From: a virus | Taxonomy: Duplodnaviria; Caudoviricetes | Virus record (IMG/VR): IMGVR_UViG_3300024270_000002 | Reading direction: 5' to 3' (one strand) | DNA: 64,000 bases | In this document: piece after piece, positions 19,130 to 64,000 of the stretch | Layout: every line of letters begins with the position of its first letter | How positions within the stretch are numbered: the stretch's first letter is position 1 | The notes under the pieces: generated by a model | What the model saw: the letters and a program-made list of their open reading frames with translations, nothing else | What the model was told of the DNA's origin: nothing | Database searches by the model: none | Made by a program: the position numbers and the translations under genes

Positions 19130-20434
19130 ATGATTCAATACATTTATTTTGTAAAGTGCCCAAACTGTGAAGACGAGCACTTTGATTTCTTTGACGAAGC
19201 AAAAGAGTTTGCTCTTAGTTGCTTAAGTAATAAACCTATTATCACTCAGACCGAAGTATGTCGCAATGACTTCGGTGAATGTACTGACTCCGCTGACCTC
19301 GGAACCGTCTGGTCTTGGGAAGATATGATGAAAGAGGCTGAGCCTGAAGATACAGTATTTTCTAAGGACGAAACTTTCGGAATTTCAGAAGGTCTCGATG
19401 ACTTCGACGATTTTGACATTGGTCCTCAGATTGACGAATTTGACAATTCCTTAGATTTTGATTTCGAGGACGATTCTACCGAGACTCTCTGGGTTGCCGA
19501 GAACCTTAATGGTGGTGAGATCGTAGCTGCTTGCTGGGCGGATTCCGAAGATCTCGCTCACAGACTTCTATCTCAGGCATTCCGTGAGAGAACCGGTGGA
19601 GACCTAAAAGATTGCTATATTCGTGAAGCAGAAGCTGATGAACCTGACTATATTACAGATAATCCTAACTTACTCGCAGAAGCTTGCTCTGAACGAAAGC
19701 CGATTCCTGAAGGCATGACTATCGAGCAGCTAGTAGAAGAGATGGAAGAGAACGAGGATACAGTAGAGTGTACTTGGTGTGAAGAACTCTTTGATAAGAG
19801 TGAGTGTCGTAAGGAAGTTAATCTCGGCTGGCTCTGTAGTAGATGCGAAGCTGCTATAAAGTCTAGAGGCGAAACTCTTACCTTTAGAGAGAACAACTAT
19901 TGGGATTTCTTGGACGAAGCTGCTACTGGTAAGCGGGTACGATTAGTTCATAATAGCTCAAAGTATCATAGTGATGGCGAGCCATATCAGTTATTTGATC
20001 TTAAAAAACTATTTAAGAGTAGTGACATTCGTGACCTTGACACTGGTAGTATTAATCTTATCGCAAAGTTTGATAACAACTGTAAGGTTATTCAGGAGAC
20101 TGATAAGGCTTACTTAGTGACGGTACCTTGCTATTATCGTAATCAACAGGACCGTTCGAAATTTGAAGAGCGTCCAAAGTATATTAGATGCTGGGTACCT
20201 AAAATACAGACAGAGCTTATTAATGAGTCTATTAGTGAGGACCCTAATGACGTAGAAACTCTTCTTGACCTCGGTAATGAATACGACGGTGGTTATCCTG
20301 CTGATAATAAGTTAGCAGAGCTTGAAGAAGCAGCTGACTACAGAAAGCATTTAGACCTTTGTCCTGAGTGCGGCGGAGAAAACGCATTTGACCACGAGAC
20401 AGGTTTCTGTCTTGACTGTGGATTTAATCTTTGA
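19130..20434 (+). CDS. Acidic multi-Zn-finger protein, putative internal head protein
   Basis: True start at ATG 19130 (AGGAG RBS, GCTAAATTA at 19094); CxxC pairs; LAE/LDE/INE/ISE/LEE motifs between modules. Confidence 0.6.
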   Translation: MIQYIYFVKCPNCEDEHFDFFDEAKEFALSCLSNKPIITQTEVCRNDFGECTDSADLGTVWSWEDMMKEAEPEDTVFSKDETFGISEGLDDFDDFDIGPQIDEFDNSLDFDFEDDSTETLWVAENLNGGEIVAACWADSEDLAHRLLSQAFRERTGGDLKDCYIREAEADEPDYITDNPNLLAEACSERKPIPEGMTIEQLVEEMEENEDTVECTWCEELFDKSECRKEVNLGWLCSRCEAAIKSRGETLTFRENNYWDFLDEAATGKRVRLVHNSSKYHSDGEPYQLFDLKKLFKSSDIRDLDTGSINLIAKFDNNCKVIQETDKAYLVTVPCYYRNQQDRSKFEERPKYIRCWVPKIQTELINESISEDPNDVETLLDLGNEYDGGYPADNKLAELEEAADYRKHLDLCPECGGENAFDHETGFCLDCGFNL

Positions 20435-20550
20435 TAAATTGAATAATCTAATAAGTCTCAGGTTAGAAGATTCATTTTAATATATTGTTTTATAGATGAG
20501 AGGACTTCTATATTACGAAAATAAAAATACTAATAGGATGGTAAATTAAA

Positions 20551-21057
20551 ATGACTAAGAATACTGAAAAGAATAATAACATTGGATACTCTTTTTATTC
20601 GAGAGTACTCGAGAAACCTTTTGATTCCTTGAGTGAGCTCACTGCTGCTGAAGCAAAGCATGCTGCAGAGCTTAAGGCTAAGGAAGATGCCGCTGCTAAA
20701 AAGAGAGCAGATGCTAAGGCAGTTGAGGATGCTTTTAAGGCACTCAATGCCGCACGTAAGACTTATAAGGAAGAGCTTACTCAGCTTACAAAAGAGTACG
20801 CTGAATCTCTTGAGAATCTTAAGAAAGCTTTTGAGCTTGGTAAGAAGGACATATCTAATAAGCTTGCTGCTGCGGAGACTACCTTTGATGAAGCTCTTAA
20901 GGCTTTTCAGACAAAGTACCCAGAGGGCTATCACCTTACTCTCAAAGATGGTGATTTCGAGACCACTATCAGTGGCAGCTCTAAAACTGGTTCCAACGTA
21001 CAGGTACCGAAGACCAGTAATATTTTTGACATCTTTGATTGGATGTTTAGTTTCTAA
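20551..21057 (+). CDS. Ala/Lys-rich coiled-coil protein
   Basis: Heptad-rich composition. Confidence 0.7.
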   Translation: MTKNTEKNNNIGYSFYSRVLEKPFDSLSELTAAEAKHAAELKAKEDAAAKKRADAKAVEDAFKALNAARKTYKEELTQLTKEYAESLENLKKAFELGKKDISNKLAAAETTFDEALKAFQTKYPEGYHLTLKDGDFETTISGSSKTGSNVQVPKTSNIFDIFDWMFSF

Positions 21058-21120
21058 TAAATACATAAAAAATTACTGAGACAATTTCAAAAATTTCAAT
21101 TTTTTATTGTATAATATAAC

Positions 21121-21195
21121 ATAAGATGAAAATCTTGTAAACAAGTTTCCTCCTTTGTTTCGTGCGCCGGATGTTTCCTCCCGTCCGGCGCTATT
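21121..21195 (+). ncRNA. Candidate sRNA or structured leader with two GUUUCCUCC anti-SD loops
   Basis: Promoter at 21107; hairpins aagat-GAAA-atctt, aaacaa-gtttcctcct-ttgttt and gcgccggat-gtttcctccc-gtccggcgc. Confidence 0.65.
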
Positions 21196-21219
21196 ATTAT
21201 AATTTAAGGATTTTACAAA

Positions 21220-21588
21220 ATGCAAAATGTAGAAGCACAAGAACTTTTATTACAAATATTAGAACAAGCTCAAGAAGGTAAGGTTACTGAATTTCACCTT
21301 ATCATGACTATGAGTGAATGTAAATTTTACTACCGTCGGTACAGAGCTGATAAGCTGATTATTAGGACACTAAAGTCTGCTGCAAAAAGACTCTATAAGA
21401 CTTACTGTAAAGAGGTAAGAATAGGAACGGCAGATGCTGGTAAGCTATTTGCTTACGTACAGCTACAGGAAGTTATTAATTTCTACACGCGAGATCTTAC
21501 AACAATAAAACAGATGTTATCAGAATATGATGAATATCTAGGTCAGGGAAATTTTTGGTATTCTTTTTTGGGTGGCGAGAGACGATAA
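21220..21588 (+). CDS. Hypothetical protein
   Basis: ORF with an AAGGA RBS. Confidence 0.65.
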   Translation: MQNVEAQELLLQILEQAQEGKVTEFHLIMTMSECKFYYRRYRADKLIIRTLKSAAKRLYKTYCKEVRIGTADAGKLFAYVQLQEVINFYTRDLTTIKQMLSEYDEYLGQGNFWYSFLGGERR

Positions 21589-21601
21589 CAGGAGTTATAT
21601 T

Positions 21602-21826
21602 ATGGAACATTCATTAACAACTTTATTTCATGCTTATGCAGATCAGGAAAAGCCGCCGGTAATAGAACTTCTTAGTATAGATAAAAAGCCGGTGGGGGCA
21701 ATTTATTTTGATAAGTTAAGATATAAAAACTTTATAGTATCCGAAACAAACAACTCTGAAAAATATTATTTATATGTTGATGGTTTAGGAATTTATTTCT
21801 CATTTTATCAAAAAATAACACCTTAA
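21602..21826 (+). CDS. Hypothetical protein
   Basis: AGGAG RBS before ATG 21602. Confidence 0.6.
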   Translation: MEHSLTTLFHAYADQEKPPVIELLSIDKKPVGAIYFDKLRYKNFIVSETNNSEKYYLYVDGLGIYFSFYQKITP

Positions 21827-21842
21827 TTATCGTATAATACTA

Positions 21843-21932
21843 TAGGTGAGTGCGAGTATGTGGTGTCATTGGCATCTGGGGCGATGAGGTAAAACTCGTC
21901 GTCCCACCTCCTTTTTAGGGCCTTAACCTATT
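21843..21932 (+). ncRNA. Candidate structured RNA upstream of nrdD with CACCUCCUUU
   Basis: Promoter at 21830; GC-rich hairpin ggggcgatgag/ctcgtcgtccc; closing taggt/accta. Confidence 0.5.
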
Positions 21933-22005
21933 ATCGTAATTGGCTAAATTAAGTACAAGAGTTTCTACTCTTTAGACATAATATTTTAAAAGAAAGGTTT
22001 AATTT

Positions 22006-24228
22006 ATGCAAAGAGTTATTAAGCGTGATGGTCGCGAAGTTGACTTTAATAAAGCTAAGATTATTGAAGCAATTTCATGTGCTAATCAAGAAATTATTAA
22101 ATCAAAGCAGATCGGTCCGCGTAAGATTAATCAGCTTGCAAACATTGTAGAAGAGAAGTGCGCCGAGTATAAGAGAGCAATTAAGGTCGAAGACATTAAC
22201 GATCTTATTGAAGACGAACTTATCTTCCGAAATTACAACGATCTCGTTCGTGCCTTTATTAAGTATAGACATAATAAAGAGTTAGTTAGAAAGTCTAATA
22301 CTACCGATGATTCAATACTCAGTTTGATTAACCTCAGCAATGAGGAACTAAAGCAGGAGAACTCGAATAAGAATCCGGTCGTTAATTCTACTCAGAGAGA
22401 CTACATGGCTGGCGAAGTATCCAAGGATCTTACTCGCAGACTTCTTCTACCTAAGGATGTAGTGAAGGCACACGATGAAGGAGTACTTCATTTCCATGAC
22501 TCAGATTACTTCGTTCAGAAGATGCATAATTGTGATCTAGTTAATCTGGAAGACATGCTTCAGAACGGTACCGTCGTCAGTGGTACTCTGATTGAGAAAC
22601 CACACAGTTTCTCTACTGCCTGTAATGTGGCTACACAGATCATCGCACAGGTTTCTAGTAACCAGTATGGTGGACAGAGCATCACTCTCTCTCACCTGGC
22701 TCCATTCGTAGACATTAGTAGACAGAAGATCCGTAAAGAAGTAGAGGAAGAGCAGAGACTTGCCTGTAATAAAACATATAATATGAACTTAGTAGAGTTC
22801 TCGGATACAATGAAAGCTGTAATTGAAGAAATTACAGAAAAGCGAGTTCGAGCAGAAGTAAAGCGCGGAGTACAGACGATCCAGTATCAGGTTAATACTC
22901 TACTTACTACTAACGGTCAAGCCCCATTTATTACCGTCTTCATGTATCTCAATGAAGTAGAAGATAAGCAAACCAAGAAAGACCTGGCGATGATCATTGA
23001 GGAAGTTCTTCTTCAGAGATATGAAGGAGTTAAGAATGAAAAGGGAGTTTGGATTACCCCGGCTTTCCCGAAGCTCATCTATGTTCTAGAAGAAGATAAT
23101 ATCTACGATACCTCTGAGTACTGGTACCTTACCAAGCTTGCTGCTAAATGCTCAGCTAAGCGTTTAGTACCTGACTACATAAGTGAGAAGATCATGAAGG
23201 AGCTTAAGGATGGATACTGCTTCCCGGTTATGGGATGTAGATCTGCTCTTAGCCCTTGGTACGATGAAAACGGAAAAGCGAAATTCTACGGTCGCTGGAA
23301 TAAAGGAGTAGTTACTGTTAACCTTGTAGACGTAGCATGTAGTGCTGCAGGAGAAAATTATGCTAAGGACATGAATAGTTTCTGGAAGAACTTTGATGAG
23401 GTTCTTGAGCTCTGTCATAAAGCCTTGCTTTGCCGCTATGAGAGACTCAAAGGAACTGTCAGTGATGTAGCTCCTATTCTGTGGCAGCACGGTGCTATTT
23501 CTAGACTTAAGAAAGGTGAGACCATTGATAAGATGCTTACTGGAGGATACTCTTCTATTAGCCTAGGGTATGCCGGTTTGTGGGAGTGTGTAGTAGAACT
23601 TATCGGTAAGGATCTACTAACTGACGAAGGCCAGAAACTCGGACTTGAGATCATGGAACACATGAATAAGAAGTGTGATGAGTGGAACGCTGAGCTTAAC
23701 CTCGGGTTCGGAATCTATGGAACTCCTCTCGAGAGTACTACATATAAGTTCGCCAGATGTTTGCAGAAGAGATATGGCGAAATCCCAAGAGTTACAGATC
23801 GAAACTATATTACCAATAGCTATCACGTACATGTAGAGGCTCCGGTAGATCCGTTTAGAAAACTCGAGATTGAAGGTAAGTTCCAAAGATTATCTAAGGG
23901 TGGAGCGATCAGTTATATCGAGAGTGCTAATTTGGAAAATAATCTTGCAGCAGCCTTGACTGTAATTCGTTACATCTATGATAACATCATGTATGCGGAA
24001 ATTAACACTAAATCTGATTACTGTCAGAAGTGCGGTTGGGATAAAGAAATTAAGATTGTAGAAGATGATTCAGGTAAGCTGGTTTGGGAGTGCCCTAACT
24101 GTGGTAACAGAGATCAGTCTACTATGAATGTTGCTAGGAGAACTTGCGGTTATATCGGAACTCAGTATTGGAACGCCGGAAGAACTGAAGAAATTAAATC
24201 AAGATATGTTCATCTTGGTGGTAACTAA
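22006..24228 (+). CDS. nrdD: Anaerobic (class III) ribonucleoside-triphosphate reductase
   Basis: ATP cone (VIKRDGR), MGCRS, YITNSYH, CxxC...CPNCG and glycyl-radical RRTCGYIG motifs. Confidence 0.97.
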   Translation: MQRVIKRDGREVDFNKAKIIEAISCANQEIIKSKQIGPRKINQLANIVEEKCAEYKRAIKVEDINDLIEDELIFRNYNDLVRAFIKYRHNKELVRKSNTTDDSILSLINLSNEELKQENSNKNPVVNSTQRDYMAGEVSKDLTRRLLLPKDVVKAHDEGVLHFHDSDYFVQKMHNCDLVNLEDMLQNGTVVSGTLIEKPHSFSTACNVATQIIAQVSSNQYGGQSITLSHLAPFVDISRQKIRKEVEEEQRLACNKTYNMNLVEFSDTMKAVIEEITEKRVRAEVKRGVQTIQYQVNTLLTTNGQAPFITVFMYLNEVEDKQTKKDLAMIIEEVLLQRYEGVKNEKGVWITPAFPKLIYVLEEDNIYDTSEYWYLTKLAAKCSAKRLVPDYISEKIMKELKDGYCFPVMGCRSALSPWYDENGKAKFYGRWNKGVVTVNLVDVACSAAGENYAKDMNSFWKNFDEVLELCHKALLCRYERLKGTVSDVAPILWQHGAISRLKKGETIDKMLTGGYSSISLGYAGLWECVVELIGKDLLTDEGQKLGLEIMEHMNKKCDEWNAELNLGFGIYGTPLESTTYKFARCLQKRYGEIPRVTDRNYITNSYHVHVEAPVDPFRKLEIEGKFQRLSKGGAISYIESANLENNLAAALTVIRYIYDNIMYAEINTKSDYCQKCGWDKEIKIVEDDSGKLVWECPNCGNRDQSTMNVARRTCGYIGTQYWNAGRTEEIKSRYVHLGGN

Positions 24229-24332
24229 TTAAATTGATAACGTTTGTAATTATAGACAAAACCTGACATTTTGTTTATTTTTACAAACGTTATTTTTTTT
24301 TATTAGCCTACTAATATTTATTACAAAGGCTA

Positions 24333-24361
24333 TTTACAAATCTTACCAATTGTGTTATACT
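24333..24361 (+). promoter_or_regulatory. SigmaA-type early promoter TTTACA-N17-TATAAT/TATACT; other copies at 24795, 25996, 26218, 27052, 30838, 31802, 40756, 41756, 43739, 44408, 45092, 48491
   Basis: Invariant TTTACA -35, exact 17-nt spacer and a frequent TG-n extension. Confidence 0.85.
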
Positions 24362-24398
24362 ATACTTATAAGGTTAATAATTTTAAGGAGGTAGCATT

Positions 24399-24749
24399 AT
24401 GAGTATAGTAAAGGATTTATTAACTAAGGAAGAACAGAGGTCAGTACATAGAATGTTAGAGATTCTACCAGAGGATGCTCCTTTATGTTATGAGGTGTGG
24501 GCTATAGGTTATTATAATAGAAGAGTTACTGATACTACTTTCTTGCTTCGAGTCTTTACAGACCCGGAAGATGCTATAGAATACGCGAAGCTTGAAGCAC
24601 CGCAGGAACTCAGAAGAATCTTATTAGAAGCTGACTTAAGTACTTTTAATGCTGTTGCCCTTGAAGTCGAGACAGTTATTGATGACAACGAAGAAGGCAC
24701 TATAAATATTTGTACATTATATAAAAAGATGTTTATTATTAAATCCTAG
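24399..24749 (+). CDS. Hypothetical protein, paralog of 25384
   Basis: Shared YEVWAIGY...FxxPxxA...EVETV motifs. Confidence 0.75.
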   Translation: MSIVKDLLTKEEQRSVHRMLEILPEDAPLCYEVWAIGYYNRRVTDTTFLLRVFTDPEDAIEYAKLEAPQELRRILLEADLSTFNAVALEVETVIDDNEEGTINICTLYKKMFIIKS

Positions 24750-24857
24750 CTGAAAATGCTAGGATTTTTTATTAAACTCTGTTAGTTTTGTCGGTTTACA
24801 AATTCATTAAAATATGTTATAATATAAATGTAAGAAAAACAATGGAGGAAACTAAAT

Positions 24858-25097
24858 ATGGAAATTAAGAATGTTACGGAAGATATGGACTGGAGCGGCT
24901 GGCTGGTAAGACCTAAGTCTGAATGGCTTAATCCCGGAGAGGAAGCTCACCCTTATGTAGTTCTTGAAGACAGAGGTCCGAGAGTACTGATTCAGCTTCT
25001 TCCTCAGTATCAGCCTAAGAATCTTACCTTCCCTTGTGTAGAGTCCGGGCTTAAAGACTGGTATGAAGTAATTGATAAGGAGATTCAAACGAGATGA
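24858..25097 (+). CDS. Early hypothetical protein (candidate target of the 21121 sRNA)
   Basis: Early promoter at 24795; GGAGGAAAC RBS. Confidence 0.75.
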   Translation: MEIKNVTEDMDWSGWLVRPKSEWLNPGEEAHPYVVLEDRGPRVLIQLLPQYQPKNLTFPCVESGLKDWYEVIDKEIQTR

Positions 25098-25276
25098 AAC
25101 AGAAAGTACATATTATTAAAATGAAGAAACCCGATAACATCATTCAGGTTAAGATCGATATTACGACTGTTCCTTCTAAGGACAGAAAGTATTCGAGGCT
25201 CAGAAATAAAGCTCAGGTCTTTGACGACCGCCGTTTTCGTAAACCCAAATATAAGAAAAATTATTTGGATGATTAA
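25094..25276 (+). CDS. Small basic hypothetical protein
   Basis: ATGA overlap with the upstream gene. Confidence 0.6.
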   Translation: MKQKVHIIKMKKPDNIIQVKIDITTVPSKDRKYSRLRNKAQVFDDRRFRKPKYKKNYLDD

Positions 25277-25383
25277 TAATTTGTTTACGATGTGTTAGCA
25301 CATTTCGTGTCGGAATACGTTATAATATATTTGTAAGTTTAATAAACAAACTAACTACTTAATAATTTTTGGAGGAAGCAAAA

Positions 25384-25992
25384 ATGAATGTAAAAGAATT
25401 GTTTGAGAATAAGGAACTTATGGAATCTATCGTTGAGGACATTGACGAGCTTCCTGAAGATACTGAGGTTGTCTATGAAGTGTGGGCCATTGGTTATGAC
25501 AGTGAGGATGACTGCACTGAGGCAGAAGTTCTTGTCGGCGAGTTTGATAATCCTGACGAAGCAGTTGCCTGCGCAGATAAAGTAACTATCGAGCAGCTCA
25601 ATGAGATTGGTTACGAGTGCCCTATTCCCGGCACAGCTTACTTCTCTATCGAGGTAGAAACTGTTGTCGAAGATCCTGAAGACGAATGCGGCGGTACTAT
25701 GAATATCGGTACTGTCTACTCGAGAGACCTTTGGATCGATGGTGAATATGGTACTGACGAAGATGCTCCTGACTATGGAGATCCTGTTGTAGCAGTTGCT
25801 GAAGGTGATTATGAGCTTCTTGAAGATGGTACTCTTAAGCTGAGTGCTAAGTTCTTGAAGGGCTTTAATAAGAACGATACGATCAGAGTTCAGTTTATTG
25901 TGGAGCCTGATGTTGACTTGCTTCCTTATAAGATTATGTCTAAGGTAGAATACGCTGATGGTGATTATTACCATTGCGAATTGATGCTCTAA
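25384..25992 (+). CDS. Acidic hypothetical protein, paralog of 24399
   Basis: YEVWAIGY and EVETV motifs. Confidence 0.75.
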   Translation: MNVKELFENKELMESIVEDIDELPEDTEVVYEVWAIGYDSEDDCTEAEVLVGEFDNPDEAVACADKVTIEQLNEIGYECPIPGTAYFSIEVETVVEDPEDECGGTMNIGTVYSRDLWIDGEYGTDEDAPDYGDPVVAVAEGDYELLEDGTLKLSAKFLKGFNKNDTIRVQFIVEPDVDLLPYKIMSKVEYADGDYYHCELML

Positions 25993-26029
25993 GGGTTTAC
26001 AAAGCAATTCCTTCATTATATAATAAGAG

Positions 26030-26165: not shown

Positions 26166-26288
26166 ATATTGCATAAAAACAAATAAAATAATTTTGAAAC
26201 TTCGGTTGTTTTGTCAGTTTACAAATCGGCCTTTTTGTGATATAATTATATACGTAAGAAACACGTACATATTTAGGAGGAAAAGAAT

Positions 26289-29149: not shown

Positions 29150-32100
29150 ATGGATACCGAACTTATGATGATTCAGATTACTCAGGACATGAATGAACTT
29201 GCAGAACAGTATGCTGGTGCAGCAAGTAATGAAAGACTTTGGGCAAAGGGCGCTCCTGATGCTGAGTCTGCTCAGATGCACGAACAGAACGCACTTCATA
29301 ATCATACTATGGCGCTGTTCTATGGTTACCTCGCAAGCAGAGCTCTCGACCTTGTAGAATCTTACATGGAGGACTGATTATGCCGACTATTACTGGAATT
29401 ACCTCAAGAGACCTGAGCCGTGAGCTTCTGTGCGAAGGCTATACTGCTAAAGTAGACTGCATGAACTTCTGGGACTCGCATGGTAAGCGTATTGAATACG
29501 CACCGACTCAGCATAAGTTCGACTCGCCTAAGAAATTCGAAATTTGGAAAGTTACCGGCGAGACTCATTACTCTACTCTTGACTATGTACATCAGTGGGA
29601 ATACTGGAAACTCTACATCGACGGCGAGCAACTCGACGTTGGTGAGATCATGAGCTATCGAATTCTTAAAACAAAAATTAAACTTGACGTCTGTGTAGGT
29701 GCAGGCTAATAATTGAACGGAGGAACACACTAATGAAGAAATCTAAATTTGTAGGTATGCAGGATGATCTGTGGGAGTGCGTACGTTGCGCAGTAGCTAC
29801 TGTACAAGGCACTCGCTGTAAGCGTAAGCGCACTGAGAATGGTAAGATGGCTAAGGCAAAGTCTCCCGGATCCAGACAGTACGAGTACGACTGGCGCCGT
29901 CCTACATCTGATGGTAAGGCATTTAAGTACATTACCTTGAATGCGCAGCAGACTGCGAGAGTGCGTAACGGCCTCGCTACGGTAGAAGAGTACGCGCAGA
30001 AGAAGGAAGCAAAGCGCTCTTTCAGACACCTCGAGAGAATCGACTACAGCTTTTGTGATTAATACATGAGAAAAGAAGAATTTCAGAAAATTATGTATGT
30101 GCTCGCGAAGCGTACTGAACTTTGCGAGCTTCACCTCGGAGACATACATACTACAGATGATCTGAGTAAACTCACTATTGCGACAGCTGCAGACCTGAAG
30201 AACTTCTGTATCGCAGAAGAAGAAGTCATGACTAAGATAGTTATGGTTGACCTTTATCATATAATTGGTATGGGAGAGCTTACCCCTCCGCAGATGATGA
30301 AGTTTACTTATGCTATTCAGAAGTACCTCCAGTATCGTCCTACTATCAAAGCGATTGCTAAATATCTTGATAGTATCTTCGAGTTGCCGAAGATTCCTGT
30401 AGCAACACAGTATAAGCTTATGGGACTCGGAGACCTTACTCTGACTTCAGGGGTTGGAGAGACCGTAGTTGACGCGGCATCTGTAGAAGATTATAAGCCG
30501 GCAAATGGACGGACTCTTGGACAATCCCTTCTACCTTTCCGAGTTGAGGGAAGACAGATTAGAGTAGACATGACTCAGTTCGATTTCTTCGTGACCCTCA
30601 TGACAAACCTCTTCAAGTCTCCGCTCTCAGTAGATAACTTCAGAAAGAAGATTACTACTAAGGGAGAGTATCTTGGAATTGAGTGGACTACTTATGACGG
30701 GTACGAAGCAGTCGGTCAGATTAAGTCTGCTGAGTCTTTTGCAAAGCTTTCCGGGTATTATAACAATCGAAAATAATATTATATAAAACAGCCAGAGCGA
30801 GGATGAAAAATTTCCAAAACTCTGGCTGTTTTGTCAATTTACAAATGGACGATTTTGTGATATAATATATATGTAATCAAGAGTACATAATTTGGAGGAA
30901 AGAAAATGATTAAGGTTGAAGGTTACAAAGCATTTCACGGTGATATGAGGATTACCCCTAAGAACGGACTTTATCCTGCTTTCTACATCTGTAATAAGGA
31001 CTGGCTCTACAAGCCGGACACTGATTGCTGGTATGGCAATGGGCAGTCTTTCCCTGCTGAAATTTGCGAAGTTATTTCTATGAAGATTTAAGGAGGCTAC
31101 AAAAGATGAAAAAGATTATGATGACTAAGTACGGATTCGTTCGTTGCCCTGAAGAGGACTTCTCTGACGACGGTAACAGATTTCAGGCTTATAAAGTAGG
31201 TAGAGTGCGAGTAACTAAACTCGTATCTGACGGTGAAGCATATATCGACGGCGATATTAATGACGGTAAGCTTCCCTATGAAGTTTATTCCAAGCTTCCT
31301 CACTATGTATTTTGTGGTAAGCTGAACGGAGTACCCGCTGCTGCTCTCACTGACGAGGACCTTCAGGAACTCTATGAAAGTTGTCAGGCTTATGATAAGG
31401 AGTACACTGATGCTGAGAACTCTATTCAGTATCCTACTGAGCTCGAGCTTCAGCGCAAGTGCAACCATATTCAAGCAAAGCTTATTAAGGAAATGAATGA
31501 GCTTGAGCAGCTGTTGGGCAACTATGCTATCGAGGCAGCTACTAAGTTTGCTAAATGGGAGTGGCAGCAACTTCAGGAGTATCTTAAGAATATGCTTCAG
31601 AAGCTTAGCCAGTATAATCCTGATAAGTTTATTCCTGCTATTCTCGGAACTGCTATAAGCTTTACCTTCCTTGCAAATAAAGAGGACACTGAGCCTACAT
31701 ATTATTATTCGTATATCAAAGAAATGTTTAAGAAGCATTCGATTATTTAATCCGCAGGCAAAGTACACAGAAAAATAAATAAACTCTGTGTGCTTTGTCA
31801 GTTTACAAATCAATCAAAACGTGGTATAATATATATGTAAGTTAATGATACGGAGGATAAAAATATGAGAAAAGACGTCACAGGCTATGCCGCATTTGAA
31901 AAAGAAACAGGTAAAGCAATTACTATTTCTTTTGGAATTACAAACCGGCTTTCCCTTACAGATGACCCTCTCAAGGTAGAACTTGCACCTACCAAGGAGC
32001 AGGCAGAGATCTATGTAATCTGGTTTAACAATAGCCACAAGAACAAGAAGGAATTTGAAATCAAGCCTGCAGTGAGAGTTATTGAGCTCTCGGCACTCGA

Positions 32101-43187: not shown

Positions 43188-43241
43188 AAAGAATTTAGGG
43201 AGTAGTATCAAAATTTAGAAAATAATGCCGTATAATATTAT

Positions 43242-43476
43242 AGAACAGAACGTTGCGAGGGTTACGGTGCGTTTGATACTTAGGTATATTTCTTTTCTTT
43301 CTTCTCTTTTCACCTCCCTCCTTTTTCGAAAAATAAGTGTGTTCATATAAGACCACTCGCAGCGTTCGTTCGCCTCCTTCGTTTGTCATAATAAAAGTAA
43401 ATAAGTTCGGATGCCTCCTTTCTAAAGTTAATTTTATCTTATTTCTTTTAAGACCGTTGCTGCGGTCTTTTTCTTT
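43242..43476 (+). ncRNA. Candidate sRNA of about 230 nt with three anti-SD tracts and its own terminator
   Basis: Promoter at 43228; stem gaacgttgcgag/ctcgcagcgttc; CACCUCCCUCCUUU, GCCUCCUUC and GGAUGCCUCCUUUCUA tracts; terminator aagaccg-ttgctg-cggtctt plus T tract. Confidence 0.7.
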
Positions 43477-63743: not shown

Positions 63744-64000
63744 AGATGATATTATTGAAGCTCTTAGGTGCTGCAGCCTTAACGGACGTAATTCTTGTGA
63801 AACCTGTCCGCTTAAAGAAGAGTGCGAAGAAAGCCCGCTTGAGAGCGTTCTTGCTAAATATACTTTTGAGGTAGTTGATAAGTTTATGCATGAGAATAGA
63901 GTACTTACCGAGCAGAGAAATACTTATAGAGAATATGCTCTTCAAATGCATGCTATGGTAGAGGATATTAAGGTTAAAGTAGATGAAGGCTATGAGTTTT
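63730..64000 (+). CDS. Hypothetical protein, 3'-truncated
   Basis: MKYSKDDIIEALRCC...CETCP; the frame stays open to the window end. Confidence 0.6.
   Translation, partial: MKYSKDDIIEALRCCSLNGRNSCETCPLKEECEESPLESVLAKYTFEVVDKFMHENRVLTEQRNTYREYALQMHAMVEDIKVKVDEGYEF

Follow-up and report, generated by a model that had tools for sequence, protein, structure and literature searches.

Comparative analysis of a 64,000-nt stretch of viral DNA (the window) indicated that the leader of gene 21220-21588 contains a compact, conserved RNA unit, and the reading that we favor, at a probability of roughly 0.45, is that this locus encodes an RsaE/RoxS-like trans-acting anti-Shine-Dalgarno (anti-SD) riboregulator embedded in the leader. 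According to this proposal, a phage-specific promoter of the YYGTATWAT class would give rise to an RNA of ~75-85 nt that begins with a hairpin at its 5' end and stops at the hairpin of an intrinsic terminator. The RNA would display the anti-SD sequence UUCCUCC twice, once in a tract with little or no pairing and once in the loop of the terminator hairpin. Either copy could pair in trans with an SD-plus-spacer region of the GGAGGAAA type and thereby block initiation. Such targets would be typical of the sigmaA-type, presumed early, leaders of this phage group, with the leader of gene 24858 matching best in this genome. Transcription past the terminator would yield the mRNA for the 122-aa gene and its operon (the 21220 operon), and the weak, noncomplementary SD of this gene would let it escape. 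The proposal starts from what was observed of the structure, conservation, and accessibility of the unit, of its complementarity statistics, and of the avoidance of complementarity at the downstream ribosome-binding site (RBS).

Genome context and promoter classes

The window corresponds, in reverse complement, to the first 63.8 kb of an IMG/VR virus record that is 127.8 kb long and has an estimated completeness of 55%. It differs from the stored record at four bases (15698, 30573, 31370, and 34929), and its last 152 bases (63849-64000) lie past the end of the stored contig. The 122-aa protein of the window is also present on a 243.5-kb contig. Since nearly all genes in the window are on the + strand and carry strong GGAGG-type SDs, the host is presumably Firmicutes-like.

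Two sharply distinct promoter classes were apparent across the whole record (window and G000). The first, of sigmaA type, comprises TTTACAAAT-N17-TATAAT sites in a conserved cassette (GTTTTGTCGG upstream and ATGTAAG at the start), which are located upstream of small genes at 24.8-45 kb; gene 27118, with a weak match to a sigma-factor PHROG, sits behind a promoter of this class. The second class comprises ~25 intergenic TTA-YYGTATWAT-ATAAT sites in this genome, which have no -35 element and are followed by leaders of mostly 22-40 nt. The labels early and middle, as applied to these classes throughout, are based on promoter form and on the weak sigma-like match of gene 27118.

Architecture of the RNA unit

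The features of the locus and of its best candidate target are listed in Table 1.

Table 1. Features of the RNA locus, its downstream gene, and the best candidate target in the window
Feature	Position	Strand	Description
Conserved upstream element	~21076-21099	+	TGAGACAATTT-N-AAATTTCAA; just 5' of the RNA's promoter
YYGTATWAT-class promoter	21086-21115	+	TTGTATAAT at 21107-21115; weak TTCAAA 18 nt upstream; consensus scan
HP1	21121-21138	+	5'-terminal 7-bp hairpin with GAAA loop; begins at the inferred transcription start
Motif 1	21144-21160	+	Exposed anti-SD tract AGUUUCCUCCUUUGUUU; family-wide core UUCCUCCUUU (21147-21156)
HP3	21164-21191	+	10-bp GC-rich, terminator-like hairpin; 8-nt loop (21174-21181) is motif 2, UUUCCUCC
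U-rich tail	21192-21205	+	UAUUAUUAUAAUUU; interrupted in this window
Weak SD and co-transcribed gene	21206-21588	+	SD AAGGA (21206-21210); gene 21220-21588, 122-aa product
Best in-genome candidate target	24795-24857	+	sigmaA-type promoter (24795-24823) and short leader of gene 24858

The original prediction had placed three hairpins, two of them with the same loop core, behind a YYGTATWAT promoter at 21107. The promoter was recovered by our consensus scan, and both it and the upstream element were found across the homologues; the upstream element, kept in most of them, is a candidate regulator-binding site. The twin GUUUCCUCC motifs are also genuine, with GTTTCCTCC occurring on the + strand only at 21145-21153 and 21173-21181. 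Two of the three hairpins proved robust. HP1 showed 96.4% of cells paired in the homologues and one pair with compensatory changes, and it was missing in a single homologue (L187). HP3, with an energy of -18.9 kcal/mol and detection by the terminator scan, showed 98.9% of cells paired in the relatives and compensatory double changes in 5 of 11 aligned pairs. The middle hairpin (21139-21160), formed by the flanks of motif 1, is weak (-1.9 to -2.7 kcal/mol); it appears in the minimum free energy structure of the 82-nt RNA and is gone in the fold of a longer leader. Pair counting across the relatives gave 83.7% paired cells and no compensatory change for it, and RNAalifold recovered HP1 and HP3 only, so it was rejected as a conserved structure. 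The leader as a whole folds at -28.5 kcal/mol (z = -4.6), and both motifs are accessible, the probability of being unpaired reaching 0.89 for 21145-21153 in motif 1.

The absence of a strong U tract behind the hairpins, which the original prediction had raised in favor of a simple leader, holds for this window (UAUUAUUAUAAUUU) but not for most relatives, whose UUUUAUUUU- or GCGCUUUUAUUUU-type tails make HP3 a textbook intrinsic terminator; this window is the exception. Alternation between U-G and U-A pairs in the stems of HP1 and HP3 fits the + strand only, and a minus-strand RNA was rejected because this alternation would turn into C-A mismatches there. A promoter-like site on the minus strand (21141-21113) is not kept in the relatives, and a mini-ORF of 4 codons within HP1 (AUG-AAA-AUC-UUG-UAA) was set aside, its AUG not being conserved. 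Indels among the homologues are not multiples of three, which fits a short noncoding unit, and the scans delimit such a unit by its own promoter and Rho-independent terminator, an architecture kept in 26 loci.

Conservation among homologous loci

Homologues were retrieved from viral and metagenome contigs by scanning with a strict pattern, and also by a protein-based route via the downstream gene. The homologous loci (n = 26) carry one RNA copy per genome; the loci concerned are L074, L171-L176, L178, L180-L187, L190-L194, and L246-L254. They share the order of YYGTATWAT promoter, 5' hairpin, exposed tract with UUCCUCCUUU, HP3 (9-11 bp, GC-rich, with UUCCUCC in the loop), U-rich tail, and gene. 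In the relatives ascertained through the protein, and hence unbiased by the DNA pattern, the UUCCUCCUUU and UUCCUCC cores are invariant, and they stay so while linkers, stems, and the neighboring protein (34-60% identity) diverge. Variants of the RNA motif were seen in L246 (AUUCCUCCUUUCG), L247 and L254 (UUUUCCUCC), and L250 (GUUCCUCCUUUU).

A covariance model search of four genomes returned exactly one copy in each, with no second copy, and representative bacterial genomes contained none, the two matches there being coding repeats. No Rfam 15 family was found at the RNA when window positions 20000-26000 were searched, and the two matches elsewhere in this range were at chance level. BLAST of a phage collection with 20500-22000 and a single-protein locus search with the 122-aa protein gave no match. 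Among the candidates that were discarded, the NrdD-based loci L005-L055 have NrdD in common (58-65% identity) but none of the neighboring genes, a loose twin-motif scan found mostly coding repeats with L074 as the sole homologue, and L177 and L179 were dropped as unrelated. On this comparative evidence, the RNA element is real and conserved, and the searches indicate that it represents a new RNA family, well delimited and previously undescribed, with a clear testable seed in its two exposed anti-SD motifs. To our knowledge, regulatory RNAs of lytic or jumbo-type phages of Gram-positive-like hosts are almost unexplored.

The same conservation bears on the account that HP3 is a mere terminator of the upstream operon, in which case the anti-SD likeness and the 16/17 match to the leader of gene 24858 (see below) would be coincidental. 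There is no other terminator between the stop codon of gene 20551-21057 and HP3, and the RBSs of AT-rich phages do resemble one another. However, every relative has a dedicated promoter between that stop codon and the hairpin, and stems and linkers vary freely around an unchanged loop and upstream tract. Such constraint is unusual for the loop of a terminator, and we consider this account highly improbable.

The downstream gene and control in cis

As expected of a cis leader, the RNA is invariably tied to one downstream gene: in every homologue it is followed by a member of this gene family, encoding 122-128 aa behind a weak SD (AGGA) located 15-35 nt past the terminator. At least 277 members of the family occur in metagenomes. 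The 122-aa protein was modeled as a three-helix coiled coil (pLDDT 91); a fold search with this model gave no significant match, only generic coiled coils and UvsY-like rows with E ~1, and Pfam and PHROGs searches with the protein returned nothing. By complementarity to motif 1, the TIR of the downstream gene ranks 180 of 183 in this genome and 268 of 270, 85 of 96, and 99 of 103 in the others of the four genomes. That the downstream RBS is among the least complementary is evidence against sequestration of its SD in cis, and the RNAalifold consensus structure shows no pairing between the motifs and this SD. Long-range cis pairing with the downstream SD was ruled out by these TIR ranks and the consensus structure, and control of the next gene in the manner of P1 c4 was excluded by the low complementarity of its TIR. 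The poor complementarity is what one would expect of a co-transcribed gene that escapes an anti-SD RNA.

A cis-acting element of another kind, a transcription attenuator, would make different use of the leader: transcription would stop early at the hairpin and U tract, a trans factor (protein or RNA) recognizing the two UUCCUCC motifs would modulate read-through into the 21220 operon, and the short RNA would be a by-product. The position of the unit suits such a device, since at all 26 loci it directly precedes a member of one gene family, leaves no space for a second promoter, and places a terminator 15-35 nt upstream of the SD; the long leader is also special here because other leaders of the YYGTATWAT class (class M) measure only 22-40 nt. 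Against it, no conserved alternative antiterminator pairing was found, RNAalifold identifying only HP1 and HP3, and the arms of HP3 covary freely without matched changes elsewhere. There is also no Rfam riboswitch or leader match, and the downstream protein is a plain coiled coil without an RNA-binding signature. We regard attenuation as a somewhat unlikely explanation of the locus.

Several other features were noted around this operon and in similar units. At 21572-21605, and in homologues (e.g., L171, 915-940), the strong SD of the next small gene (UUAGGAGGU) lies within the coding sequence of the 122-aa protein, in its conserved C-terminal LGG codons. Farther downstream (21830-22005), nrdD is preceded by a structured leader of 168 nt under a second YYGTATWAT promoter (21830); in this leader, a 12-bp hairpin (21877-21906) is directly followed by CCUCCUUUUU, an anti-SD-like tract that doubles as terminator tail; this unit is conserved in L171 (1160-1260), and a comparison with Rfam gave no match except a chance-level tfoR. 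The nrdD-nrdG region of the relatives has been invaded by homing-endonuclease-like genes (L254, 2258-5507; L246, 9555-10364; L253, 9474-10205). The nrdD gene of L254 is split by a 270-aa ORF into parts of 425 and 383 aa, and GIY-YIG genes lie between nrdD and nrdG in L246 and L253. A promoter-led unit of ~250 nt without an ORF (43228-43476) carries UCACCUCCCUCCUUUUU, CGCCUCCUUCG, and GAUGCCUCCUUUCUA and accounts for four of the eight intergenic + strand CCTCC sites of the genome, against ~2 expected in 11.9 kb of intergenic DNA.

Complementarity to the leader of gene 24858

The original prediction singled out gene 24858, 3.7 kb away, as the target. This gene does lie behind a sigmaA-type promoter (TTTACA-17-TATAAT with TG, matching 11 of 12 consensus positions), and the reverse complement of 21144-21160 does match 24837-24853, which covers the SD and spacer of the 24858 leader, at 16 of 17 positions; no other site within three mismatches was found in the rest of the window. 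The complement of GTTTCCTCC has a single site, at 24844-24852, against 0.45 matches expected by chance. The predicted occurrences of GGAGGAAA at the RBSs of genes 26289 (at 26276) and 30906 (at 30894) were verified as well. Under a null model built from the position frequencies of this genome's own GGAGG-centered RBSs, a match of at least 16/17 has a probability of 2.7e-5 per RBS, or 0.0017 expected over 63 RBSs. Six of the 63 real RBS 17-mers (~10%) have a 16/17 twin among the other RBSs, and because leader cassettes are repeated, such similarities are less rare than an independence model implies. The 16/17 match is thus no artefact of composition, though P values based on independence are optimistic.

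These figures would suit a narrower interpretation, in which the RNA exists to silence gene 24858, and a few early genes like it, at the level of translation by means of the 16/17 duplex (~0.002 such matches expected). For each phage, the duplex energy was calculated for its motif-1 region paired with its own p24858-family leader, and the genome means were ~-11.4 to -12.7 kcal/mol (standard deviation, ~3.5). The duplex ranked first of 183 TIRs in this window (G000; -22.4 kcal/mol) and first of 96 in G004 (-22.1 kcal/mol), remained strong in L252 (-20.4 kcal/mol, not ranked) and G001 (-19.1 kcal/mol, rank 8 of 270), and the p24858 family was the top ortholog group in a CopraRNA-like comparative target ranking. 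Two target substitutions in the relatives, A to G and C to U, would still allow pairing as G-U. The 24858 TIR is nevertheless no energetic outlier in this genome, the next values being -22.2 and then -19.8 kcal/mol, and the duplexes of the other loci, none of them ranked, were weaker: -16.8 kcal/mol in L251 and only -15.4, -14.2, -14.0, and -14.0 kcal/mol in L172, L178, L248, and L254, respectively.

The orthologous leaders show how the pairing varies. Most keep the core GGAGGAAA(Y)U, and the seed is near-invariant, with energies of the extended pairing that span -22.4 to -14.0 kcal/mol; the position adjoining GGAGG is always mismatched. In L248, the target protein is 82% identical and the motif 1 core (AAGUUUCCUCCUUUGUU) is identical, yet the RBS reads GGAGGACGCU. 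The L172 target protein is 98.8% identical to that of G001, and despite this the upstream arm of its leader differs. The lineage of L074 and G003 has kept the promoter cassette with GGAGAAAUUU as its RBS and a different gene downstream. No 24858 orthologue is present in G003/L074 or in the windows of L246, L247, L249, L250, and L253, all of which retain the RNA, and where the RNA carries one U more or one fewer (L247, L254, and L250), the target shows no matching change. A check for covariation between loop and target found none, nor was any possible, because the RNA motif hardly varies across the relatives and its seed is nearly invariant. The extended pairing proposed for the 24858 leader does not appear to be conserved, with energies dropping to -14.0 kcal/mol in orthologues and the gene missing from several relatives. 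Since the extended pairing varies and relatives lack the gene, the 16/17 duplex appears to be a lineage-specific maximum and not a conserved interaction, and an RNA dedicated to gene 24858 is quite unlikely.

A signature of presumed-early leaders

A broader signal emerged when promoter-proximal leaders, pooled from four genomes and 14 loci, were sorted by promoter class. GGAGG is followed by AAA in 24 of 36 sigmaA-type (TTTACA-N17-TATAAT) leaders and by AAA[CT] in 16 of them; the corresponding counts are 2 and 0 among 34 YYGTATWAT-class leaders and 40 and 20 among 313 other RBSs. The Fisher test between the sigmaA-type and YYGTATWAT classes gave 7e-8, on counts in which orthology and the repetition of promoter cassettes cause pseudo-replication. 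The same trend was seen inside each of the four genomes. In this genome (G000), the AAA signature was present in 3/7 early leaders, 0/7 class-M leaders, and 6/65 other RBSs, and in G001 the respective values were 3/4, 0/11, and 12/107. By manual grouping, the early leaders with this signature belong to at least eight different gene families. The effect of class on duplex energy was small (z ~-0.3, p ~0.04). By sequence, then, the 8-nt loop UUUCCUCC is complementary to the signature of presumed-early leaders, and the promoter class of the RNA itself avoids that signature.

The predicted shut-off of early mRNAs in trans fared unevenly against these data: the conserved anti-SD RNA and the enrichment of GGAGGAAA in early leaders agree with it, and specificity for gene 24858 does not, falling short of the prediction's own criterion of pairing kept in homologues. 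The short RNA would accumulate, act in trans, and repress translation, presumably at a middle stage. Since nearly all strong SDs could pair with CCUCC, any specificity of the RNA is putative. A bolder version holds that the RNA is a temporal-class switch, in which the product of a middle-type promoter reads the SD-plus-AAA signature of early leaders and shuts off early translation globally; middle-class leaders (2/34 with the signature) and the co-transcribed gene would be left untouched. We consider this version unlikely. If it were true, one small RNA would separate early from middle phage translation, which would constitute a novel implementation of temporal control and provide a small natural device for SD-specific translational repression.

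The motifs might instead be protein-binding sites, or make the RNA a decoy that imitates the CCUCC end of 16S rRNA, with their likeness to an SD complement unused for pairing with mRNA. An invariant core without a covarying RNA partner would be compatible with this, a duplicated identical motif would suit a dimeric binder, and other promoter-led units of the genome also carry CCUCCUU tracts. Yet no candidate binding protein was identified, and the motif reads UUUCCUCC and not CACCUCCUUUCU, which is the order at the 3' end of 16S rRNA. Pairing also explains the enrichment of GGAGGAAA in early leaders more simply, and we judge a protein-binding or decoy role to be very unlikely.

Comparison with known systems

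The design of the putative riboregulator is closest to that of RsaE/RoxS, in which a C-rich motif is present in two identical copies, one located in a loop and the other left unpaired between two stem-loops, and pairs with G-rich SD regions to block initiation (PMC6158497). RsaE/RoxS (RF01820), a conserved sRNA of Firmicutes, is likewise a short RNA with its own promoter and terminator, and its design feature of two SD-complementary C-rich motifs, one in a loop and one unpaired, is present here. The motif is CCCCUU in RsaE/RoxS and UUCCUCC here, and the RNA described here differs in being phage encoded, in having one motif in the terminator loop, and in being fused to the leader of a protein gene. 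The RsaE covariance model, which detected the B. subtilis RNA over the cut-off as a control, found no match at E<=1 in window positions 20000-26000 or in the whole 128-kb record. With this negative result and no homology in sequence or structure, membership in RsaE/RoxS was rejected, and the analogy is one of design only.

The c4 RNA of phages P1 and P7 is a small phage RNA upstream of genes in the same unit, and two short exposed sequences in it occlude an RBS. The leader position, the two exposed sequences, and the proposed RBS occlusion are shared with our RNA. However, c4 targets the RBS of the next gene, whereas the downstream RBS here is among the least complementary in the genome, and c4 is released by processing, whereas the 3' end of our RNA would be set by a terminator hairpin. 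RNAIII of S. aureus binds the SD regions of its target mRNAs through C-rich hairpin loops, one of which belongs to the terminator hairpin, and the C-rich loops, their presence in the terminator hairpin, and the proposed SD pairing recall the present case. RNAIII is, by contrast, a multidomain RNA of 514 nt that serves bacterial quorum sensing, and it shares no homology with the phage RNA. Both the c4 antisense RNA of P1/P7 and the 13th stem-loop of RNAIII are mentioned in PMC12197685.

The outcome proposed for the riboregulator, namely the inactivation of early mRNAs via their SD region at the next temporal class, is the same as that of the T4 RegB/RegA system. RegB is an endoribonuclease that cuts GGAG, and RegA is a translational repressor. 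Both are proteins, whereas the phage unit described here would achieve this outcome by RNA pairing. Phage sRNAs that occlude RBSs are already known, and a switch acting on a whole temporal class would be considerably more novel than another RNA of that kind.
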